Shown here: in pieces, positions 11,192-12,565 of the stretch
How the letters are laid out: every line of letters starts with the position of its first letter
Numbering within the stretch: the first letter of the stretch is position 1
DNA from: a virus
Lineage: Duplodnaviria; Heunggongvirae; Uroviricota; Caudoviricetes
Virus record (IMG/VR): IMGVR_UViG_2585427784_000001
DNA: 16,129 bases
Strand: one strand, 5' to 3'
The notes under the pieces: generated by a model
The model's input: only the letters and a program-made list of their open reading frames with translations
What the model was told of the DNA's origin: nothing
The model's database searches: none
Translations under genes and position numbers: made by a program

Positions 11192-11983
11192 TCATTGAAA
11201 ACTGCTTTTAGAACTTGATACAACGGGACTAGTCACAACAGGACTATTCTCAACGGGATCATCCTCAGAGGAACTATCATCAAAGTCATCATCCATAAAT
11301 AAAATATCATCGAATGGTGCCACGCCCGTGATGAGTTTTATTTTATTATTACGATCAGTCAATACTCCACTTAAACCGTTTTCGCTCACAGGTTTTAATG
11401 ATTTTTCATTACTCTTGTTGTAAGCAGGCGCATTAAAAATACACGGAGTATCAACATCAAACAATGACGTTCCCCAGTTCACATATTGAATATCATAGTT
11501 ACTGAAGTTCTGTCCAGAAAAGAAGCACCCCTTAAAATCCAATCCACGTAAATTATATAAACCACCCTCTTCTTTTTGGAGAGTAATGTTAATTTTGGCT
11601 ATCTCCCGGACATCATCGCCATTTTTGTATTTGAATACCGTTTCAAGATGTTCTCCAGACAGCTTGACTTCAGGAAATAATTTGAAATCAAAGCCTATAT
11701 TATTATGTGTCAACGTAGATGAACAAAAAATGGAAAAAGCTTGCAGTGCTGAATTATAGCTATCGATTTTATCTTGAGGCTGAGCTCTTGGTAAAAACTT
11801 ATAGCAACACTCATAAAAATTAAACAGAAGCTCTGAAGACCTTGTATTTTTATCAAATAATACCCCCTTGAACTCATTCACAAACGCATCTTTTTTTTCT
11901 TGAATATCTATGGGGTGTTCCTTTGACTCTGACAAAGATGAAATCTCATCTATTTTGTTTTCATATGAATTACGTGATTCCAT
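11192..11983 (-). CDS. ypjB: YpjB-like protein (263 aa); probably the C-terminal part of a longer ypjC/ypjB frame; contains a pentapeptide-repeat-like block and an acidic Ser-rich tail
   Basis: AT-rich ORF with no Shine-Dalgarno before its ATG. The same frame is open for 33 codons upstream to a TAG that is the ypjC-like stop. Residues ~143-177 (YNLRG LDFKG CFFSG QNFSN YDIQY VNWGT SLFDV) show a 5-residue periodicity. Confidence 0.65.
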   Translation of the reverse strand: MESRNSYENKIDEISSLSESKEHPIDIQEKKDAFVNEFKGVLFDKNTRSSELLFNFYECCYKFLPRAQPQDKIDSYNSALQAFSIFCSSTLTHNNIGFDFKLFPEVKLSGEHLETVFKYKNGDDVREIAKINITLQKEEGGLYNLRGLDFKGCFFSGQNFSNYDIQYVNWGTSLFDVDTPCIFNAPAYNKSNEKSLKPVSENGLSGVLTDRNNKIKLITGVAPFDDILFMDDDFDDSSSEDDPVENSPVVTSPVVSSSKSSFQ

Positions 11984-12082
11984 ACAGACATTTGGCGGCG
12001 TTTCTAAAATAACACTACGCGTACTACTTGGCTTAAGTAAACCAACATGAAAATCACTTTTTCTTATATTATCGAAAAGGTT

Positions 12083-12565
12083 CTATTCATTTCTTTTAGC
12101 GCATTCAAAAAACTGATCGGCATTATTTTTATTCGATAATTTTTTAGTTTCAGAAAACACATTTTCATTGTTTTCCAGCTTTAGTTTAATGAGAAGATTT
12201 TCCCAGACCTGCTTGCTTAAACATATTACGTCAGGCTCACCAGAACTAACTAACTCGTGATTATTATTAAAGTGTACGTTGAATACCTTTAAGTTATTTT
12301 CACCAACTTCATATTTAATACGTTTTAATTGTTCTCCAGCTCCCATAATGACAAAGGCGTTGCCTTCTTGATATATACATTCAGACATCATTTTTTGTAA
12401 AGTTTCAAGAGCACCGCGATACGTCTCTGATGCAGCTTCCTTACAAATTAATTTTAAAATACTATGAGCTAGTAGCTCCATGTGTTTAGAAGATTTATTT
12501 TCATTATAACTTCCACTACCCAAAACTGCGCTAGCGTTAAATCCGTTGCTTTTACTAACTAACAT
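12083..12565 (-). CDS. ypjC: YpjC-like protein (160 aa); N-terminal part of the same amber-interrupted frame
   Basis: AT-rich ORF with GAGGAA 6-7 nt upstream of the ATG. Ends at TAG (12085..12083), in frame with the ypjB-like ORF. Combined frame 12565..11192 is 458 codons including the internal TAG and the final stop. Confidence 0.65.
   Translation of the reverse strand: MLVSKSNGFNASAVLGSGSYNENKSSKHMELLAHSILKLICKEAASETYRGALETLQKMMSECIYQEGNAFVIMGAGEQLKRIKYEVGENNLKVFNVHFNNNHELVSSGEPDVICLSKQVWENLLIKLKLENNENVFSETKKLSNKNNADQFFECAKRNE

Follow-up and report, generated by a model that had tools for sequence, protein, structure and literature searches.

Do ypjC and ypjB, two open reading frames (ORFs) that follow one another on the minus strand of the virus record IMGVR_UViG_2585427784_000001 (IMG/VR; Caudoviricetes), represent two genes, one gene whose expression depends on the readthrough of a stop codon, or one gene that has been broken? 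The record comprises 16,129 nucleotides, and this whole stretch is referred to below as the window. The original prediction, made from the letters of the window, had described a single AT-rich frame split by one in-frame TAG, and had proposed that this codon either inactivates the gene or makes it dependent on readthrough. The comparisons described here point to the first of these two options: ypjC and ypjB are very probably two parts of a single accessory gene, ypjCB, that was acquired horizontally and is disabled in this allele by a change of CAG (Gln) to TAG at codon 161.

The reading frame and its stop codon

Translation of 12565..11192 on the minus strand gives precisely the frame that had been described. 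Its 458 codons contain a single internal stop, the TAG at codon 161, in addition to the terminal TGA (Table 1). The ypjC and ypjB ORFs share this frame, and the 33 codons that lie between them (codons 162-194) are open. A Shine-Dalgarno motif is present upstream of the first ORF only, as had also been noted and as is seen in the sequence; when the sequence before the ypjB ATG (11983) was read, no purine-rich or Shine-Dalgarno-like motif was found there. The guanine-plus-cytosine (GC) content is 0.32-0.36 across 11001..13000, the region of ypjCB (about 33%), compared with 0.43-0.54 in the adjacent ypjA (5501..10500). Promoter-like sites are not in excess (8, versus 8.9 in shuffled sequences), and terminator-like sites are in slight excess (4, versus 1.6 in shuffles, with a standard deviation of 1.3).

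Table 1. Positions of ypjCB, its parts and the neighbouring features in the window
Feature	Position	Strand	Description
ypjCB pseudogene, whole frame	11192..12565	-	458 codons; 457 sense positions in intact alleles
Amber codon TAG (codon 161)	12083..12085	-	Inactivating lesion; Gln CAG/CAA in intact alleles
ypjC ORF	12083..12565	-	160 aa + stop; DUF5507 N-terminal domain; b2650 in NC_000913.3
ypjB ORF	11192..11983	-	263 aa; start is internal Met M195 of the intact protein; DUF5508; b2649 in NC_000913.3
Shine-Dalgarno GAGG	12574..12577	-	8 nt upstream of ATG 12565..12563; read from the sequence
Pentapeptide-like block	11453..11557	-	Residues 337-371 of the fused protein, 143-177 of YpjB; 7 x-[D/N]-[L/F/I/W]-x-x repeats
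Acidic tail PFDDILFMDDDFDDSSSEDDPVE	11249..11317	-	Residues 417-439; after the block; predicted disordered
tRNA-Ile(CAU) ileY	13316..13391	-	ARAGORN; annotated ileY in MG1655; flanks the islet; not an amber suppressor
ygaQ-like alpha-amylase-family pseudogene	13951..15362	+	TGG-to-TAG at codon 111, 1-bp deletion, cut by IS1

Orthologues and frequency of the amber allele

In a search of 5.8 billion proteins, hundreds of E. coli proteins with both of the Pfam domains found in the two ORFs were retrieved as uninterrupted chains of 449-492 residues. Position 161 is Gln in all 13 of the intact orthologues that were aligned end to end (449-492 residues), and 9 other loci, compared as DNA, have CAG or CAA there. 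Because the intact orthologues carry Gln CAG or CAA at codon 161, the lesion can be identified as a C-to-T nonsense mutation in one gene. Alignment with orthologues was the check that the original prediction had proposed, and it returned uninterrupted proteins with a sense codon at the site of the stop. An alignment in which all orthologues ended at codon 161, which had been named as contrary evidence, did not emerge; instead, the proteins of 449-492 residues align across the junction.

Intact alleles are found in strains 2013C-3264 (457 residues), Combat11I9 and O55:H7 DEC5D (449 residues), and 300444 and XJ6.1 (484 residues). The annotated intact proteins include WP_000961333.1 (2013C-3264), WP_072685807.1, WP_000906748.1, WP_001587330.1 and WP_275877537.1. 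Apart from having Gln161, these members vary in length in two ways. Some alleles carry an insertion of 105 nucleotides (35 residues) in the linker at codons ~203-208, which brings the protein to 484 residues, and codon 450 is polymorphic, giving 457 residues when it is TCA and 449 when it is TAA or TGA.

Of 5426 complete E. coli genomes, 3082 carry the locus. A 61-mer with the TAG at its centre has an exact match in 1232 of the 5426, and its counterpart with CAG has one in 340; the other carriers of the locus have flanks that diverge from the 61-mer and are left unclassified in these counts. The sources of the TAG allele are natural isolates from humans, chickens, sediment and others; the allele is a widespread natural polymorphism and not a laboratory artefact. 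The allele of the window differs from the intact allele of 2013C-3264 at 27 nucleotides, namely the TAG, one other position in codons 1-160, and 25 positions downstream. This uneven, mosaic-looking spread of differences suggests that recombination may have taken place within ypjCB.

From the observed frame, stop and orthologues, the consequences for translation can be inferred. Ribosomes would start at the ATG led by the Shine-Dalgarno motif (12565) and terminate at 12085..12083. The product would be an N-terminal fragment of 160 residues that comprises the DUF5507 domain, and ypjC is the sole part of the frame expected to be translated. The other 296 codons, among which are those for the conserved C-terminal domain with its pentapeptide-like block and for the acidic tail, would remain untranslated save for background readthrough. 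The ypjB ORF, with an internal Met as its start and with no ribosome-binding site, would not constitute an independent gene.

The glutamine-inserting amber suppressor supE44 (glnV44) of K-12 laboratory strains reads UAG as Gln. In strains of this kind codon 161 would again specify its native Gln, and full-length YpjCB could reappear with its original sequence. This is a practical caveat for work with the locus rather than a biological mechanism.

Annotation and the question of two genes

The fused translation is recognised by existing models at both levels. Pfam places DUF5507 on residues 1-160 (364 bits) and DUF5508 on residues 195-457 (619 bits), in N-to-C order and above the gathering score. 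The NCBIfam model NF050179 (Ecoli_YpjCB, 'YpjCB family protein'), a profile of 465 positions with a curated cutoff of 650 bits, matches the fused translation with 947.5 bits over profile positions 1-465 when the stop is replaced by Q for scoring. The gene of the window and the members of this family are the same gene, and the sole difference is the pseudogene state: the uninterrupted frame of a functional YpjCB member is broken here by the TAG at codon 161. The ypjCB DNA is 100% identical to that of K-12 MC1000, which the RefSeq Prokaryotic Genome Annotation Pipeline (PGAP) annotates as 'ypjCB, YpjCB family protein', a pseudogene with an 'internal stop'. Together with Gln161 in the intact orthologues, the family match and this pseudogene call bear out the proposal of one gene of about 457 residues inactivated by one amber codon. 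Because NF050179 spans both halves and PGAP already records the internal stop of ypjCB, this conclusion is already embodied in annotation. The reading is correct but already known, being held in a curated model and in automatic annotation, and no long-standing question is opened by it.

Several observations weigh against the reading of ypjCB as a single, inert pseudogene. The first is the MG1655 reference (NC_000913.3), the only record in which ypjC (b2650) and ypjB (b2649), with ORF coordinates and sequences identical to those of the window, are still kept as separate protein-coding sequences with protein accessions. The second is a phenotype. Deletion of ypjC in MG1655 led to more biofilm and to more colonisation by a pathogenic E. 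coli (PMC3646849), and when ypjC was expressed constitutively no significant effect was seen (PMC3646849). The ypjC fragment or the locus may thus not be inert, either because some activity is retained or because the deletion acts indirectly. In the literature search, this biofilm study was the only functional mention of ypjC, and ypjCB, DUF5507 and DUF5508 were mentioned nowhere. The third is the absence of a second lesion from the 296 codons that follow the TAG in this allele, which, taken alone, is compatible with residual use through readthrough; a clean downstream frame also fits a recent mutation.

The reference record and the phenotype could be taken to mean that ypjC and ypjB each function as a gene of their own, in the way that MG1655 is annotated, and the existence of two distinct Pfam families, DUF5507 and DUF5508, agrees with such a view. 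It is nevertheless highly improbable. The two ORFs share one frame, the linker between them is open, and no Shine-Dalgarno motif stands ahead of ypjB, whose assigned start corresponds to an internal Met in the uninterrupted proteins of many strains. The curated NCBIfam model covers both halves, and both Pfam domains occur in every full-length homologue; the two families evidently derive from the divided gene models of K-12. The MG1655 record thus shows two genes, whereas the comparative evidence shows fragments of one, and the record and Pfam split what PGAP and NCBIfam treat as a single gene. With ypjCB read as one disabled gene, studies of the deletion or overexpression of 'ypjC' or 'ypjB' in K-12 would be work on a truncated pseudogene.

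Recurrent loss and the question of readthrough

To describe the condition of the gene elsewhere, alleles were sampled along the range of identity and each was aligned to the intact 2013C-3264 allele (WP_000961333.1). A deletion of one nucleotide at position 609 of the gene is shared by strains 09-00049, TUM12355, EC01307 and W2-5, and in W2-5 it is accompanied by an insertion of IS5 (insertion sequence 5). O157:H7 carries an extra nucleotide at position 1218, FDAARGOS_497 lacks one at position 473, and in strain C11 codon 122 is changed from GAA to TAA. Two further lesions are found on top of the TAG allele, namely an IS1 insertion in MLI023K1 and the loss of one nucleotide at position 703 in Shigella flexneri. 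The independent breakages thus amount to four different 1-bp frameshifts, one further nonsense codon, one IS5 and one IS1. Judging from these alleles, ypjCB is undergoing repeated decay in different lineages and not recoding, because readthrough cannot rescue frameshifts or insertion sequences and because one TAG lineage has already acquired a second lesion. In a small way, the repeated and independent disruption of this orphan, which is restricted to E. coli and Shigella, illustrates how accessory genes decay in an islet linked to a tRNA gene.

These data bear directly on the other half of the original proposal, according to which the amber codon would be functional and its regulated or programmed readthrough would yield YpjC as a short product alongside small amounts of full-length YpjCB. 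Such an arrangement would be in keeping with a single lesion followed by a fully open frame in this allele, with the abundance of the TAG allele among natural isolates (the 1232 genomes given above), and with the TAG stops of ygaQ, a neighbouring accessory gene. An A following UAG favours suppression, which counts on the same side. Programmed readthrough is characterised by a conserved stop with a selected downstream ORF, whereas the stop of ypjCB is not conserved and its intact orthologues encode Gln there with CAG or CAA. In other lineages the gene is broken by frameshifts and insertion sequences at unrelated sites, which lie beyond rescue, and the combination of the amber codon with a downstream frameshift in S. 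flexneri is the pattern expected of a dead gene. The only tRNA that ARAGORN finds in the window is tRNA-Ile(CAU), so that no suppressor tRNA is encoded in this part of the genome, no search for a recoding structure having been made, and CAG-to-TAG and TGG-to-TAG are both ordinary G:C-to-A:T transitions. The probability of a functional amber codon is accordingly judged to be close to negligible, and this part of the original prediction is set aside.

The pentapeptide-like block and the C-terminal domain

The original prediction had placed about seven consecutive five-residue repeats in the C-terminal half of the frame, and they are present at the coordinates it gave (Table 1). The block consists of the pentads YNLRG LDFKG CFFSG QNFSN YDIQY VNWGT SLFDV, all seven of which have a hydrophobic centre, with D or N just before the centre in five. 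When the protein was shuffled 20000 times with its composition preserved, a run of at least seven pentads with hydrophobic centres, at least five of them preceded by D or N, arose in only 1 shuffle. The repeat pattern degenerates in the two pentads that come next, DTPCI and FNAPA. The 35 residues of the block are invariant in the alignment of 13 orthologues except for Q/K at position 360; in a wider alignment of 16 sequences, S355, Y361 and G365 also vary, and residues 341-359 are invariant. The acidic tail that had been described after the repeats is likewise present as PFDDILFMDDDFDDSSSEDDPVE, and its core, PFDDILFMDDDFDD, is invariant in the alignment of 16 sequences.

The question that follows is whether intact YpjCB is a pentapeptide-repeat protein that forms a short right-handed quadrilateral beta-helix, acting either as a secreted effector of the PipB2, EspY3 or NleL kind or as a DNA mimic of the Qnr or MfpA kind. 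The seven in-register repeats, their rarity in shuffles and their near invariance among orthologues all speak for this. When the C-terminal segment was scanned alone, the best non-self Pfam matches were both pentapeptide families, PF00805 (Pentapeptide) and PF13576 (Pentapeptide_3). The first, at 14.8 bits and E 0.021, stays below its cutoff of 20.2 bits, and the second, at 13.7 bits, stays below its cutoff of 27. In the scan of the full-length protein, no pentapeptide family appeared at E values up to 1. A profile of the C-terminal domain searched against the PDB had as its top match the pentapeptide protein AhQnr, with a non-significant E value of 0.29, and a PDB sequence search with the full protein gave no match at E up to 10.

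Pentapeptide repeat proteins are defined by at least eight contiguous repeats, and their quadrilateral beta-helix takes four repeats for each coil (PMC8145042). The seven clear repeats of YpjCB fall short of this number and would make fewer than two coils. The AlphaFold2 model of full-length YpjCB is poor, with a predicted local distance difference test (pLDDT) score of 42. The model of the C-terminal domain has a pLDDT of 56 overall and of about 64-83 over its residues 11-80, where a three-stranded meander is predicted to be followed by short strands every five residues (pLDDT about 64-81), a spacing that would be in line with a pentapeptide fold. The acidic tail has a pLDDT below 50 in both models.

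With regard to an effector role, pentapeptide repeats are known in type III secretion system (T3SS) effectors of E. coli and Salmonella (PMC6313403, PMC8145042), and the Ser/Asn-rich N-terminus and AT-rich gene of YpjCB would resemble those of many effectors. Against this, neither the PDB sequence search nor phmmer detected homology to any known effector, and intact alleles occur in many strains that are not known as T3SS pathogens. YpjCB resembles the pentapeptide proteins (PF00805; Qnr and MfpA; the repeat regions of PipB2, EspY3, NleL and SopA) in its short A(D/N)LXX-like run, but it differs from them in having only seven repeats, sub-threshold scores, no confirmed beta-helix and a dissimilar remainder of the protein. 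It is therefore unlikely, though worth keeping in mind, that intact YpjCB is a pentapeptide effector or mimic. Of the resemblance that had been proposed, the pattern stands, whereas membership of the family does not follow from the scores or the number of repeats, and structure prediction gave no confirmation of the fold. The resemblance appears to be a genuine sequence pattern that points weakly to the pentapeptide proteins, an unproven lead that stays below the thresholds of the family.

Family distribution, selection and possible function

An exhaustive phmmer search of 1.84 billion representatives at 50% identity returned one full-length YpjCB cluster together with fragments. Each of 185,579 species was represented by one genome in a pattern scan, which found the gene in E. 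coli and Shigella flexneri only, apart from two contaminant contigs. These contigs, in a Planococcaceae metagenome-assembled genome and in an Arthrobacter agilis assembly, carry ypjCB DNA that is 100% identical to that of E. coli, and contamination is almost certain. In the plasmid collection, only mislabelled chromosomes and one fragment were found. The only meaningful match in PHROGs is the unannotated entry of the family itself, phrog_30093, and PADLOC gave no match to YpjCB. On the evidence of these searches, YpjCB is an orphan family confined to E. coli and Shigella.

One marginal outlier of the phmmer search, the only match outside the family, was considered and rejected. Residues 297-356 (11498..11677, minus strand) align with a 799-residue metagenomic protein at E 5.9e-4, with 37% identity over 60 residues, at the junction between tandem PA14 domains of that protein. 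A relationship to PA14 was discarded as a probable chance similarity, since the Pfam family PF07691 gives no match at E up to 10.

The ratio of nonsynonymous to synonymous substitution (dN/dS) was estimated roughly by the Nei-Gojobori method among divergent alleles. The first 160 codons have values of 0.7-1.6, the linker has values of about 1.0-1.2 and residues 290-432 have values of 0.2-0.6; these figures are to be read with the caveat that some of the alleles compared are pseudogenes and the counts are small. By this estimate, constraint clearly falls on the C-terminal domain of YpjCB, and the N-terminal half appears to be fast-evolving.

With low confidence, intact YpjCB may be regarded as a protein-binding or secreted, effector-like protein. 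This guess is made because the gene lies in an AT-rich islet and has the spread of an orphan, because a Ser/Asn-rich, fast-evolving N-terminus is joined to a conserved, folded and beta-rich C-terminal domain under purifying selection and to an acidic tail, and because pentapeptides occur in known effectors (PMC6313403). A more elaborate scenario is a long shot. In it, YpjCB would be a protein specific to E. coli that is secreted or interacts with the host, with a minimal pentapeptide beta-helix of fewer than two coils and an acidic, F/D-rich tail; its loss, through at least seven lesions, would have been selected as that of an antivirulence or costly gene, and the YpjC fragment would keep the biofilm activity seen in K-12.

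The genomic neighbourhood

The low GC content had been taken as a sign of horizontal origin. Such an origin fits the GC content of about 33%, the adjacency to the tRNA-Ile(CAU) gene ileY and the restriction of the family to E. coli and Shigella.

The original prediction had also pointed to a nearby ygaQ-like gene interrupted by an in-frame TAG. The stop is present at 14281..14283 (codon 111), where the intact orthologue has TGG, and further lesions are the loss of 1 bp near 15142 and the IS1 that begins at 15363. In the ygaQ gene of MG1655, TGG has become TAG at three codons (111, 346 and 614); in strain 2013C-3264, ygaQ (WP_000491432.1) and ypjCB are both intact. Like ypjCB, ygaQ is an AT-rich accessory gene of the same islet that has acquired an amber codon by transition and remains intact in some strains. 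It differs in belonging to an unrelated protein family and in being also frameshifted and interrupted by IS1 here. The amber codons of the two genes all amount to ordinary G:C-to-A:T transitions, and both genes are AT-rich accessory genes in decay.

On the other side of ypjCB lies ypjA, which is itself truncated or a pseudogene in several strains; since it too is broken, the whole islet can be regarded as decaying. Between ypjCB and ypjA there are a remnant of the pinH recombinase gene (10619..10858, minus strand) and a small coding sequence for a 39-residue 'hypothetical protein' (WP_001120794.1 in RefSeq, ~10480..10600).

The window is not MG1655 DNA, and it aligns with MG1655 only over 5533..15362, with 99.66% identity. 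To the right, 15363..16129 is an IS1 element. To the left, 1..5532 is occupied by a different prophage remnant that replaces the end of CP4-57, and its genes include a tail-sheath fragment, a DUF2303 gene, a gene for a YfbR-like HD protein, a DUF551 gene and an integrase gene (3486..4658). Directly 3' of the integrase gene, on the plus strand at 4700..5479, lies an ORF of 259 residues with a GC content of about 33%, a hydrophobic N-terminus and no Pfam match, which may belong to the integrated element as a cargo or defence-type gene.

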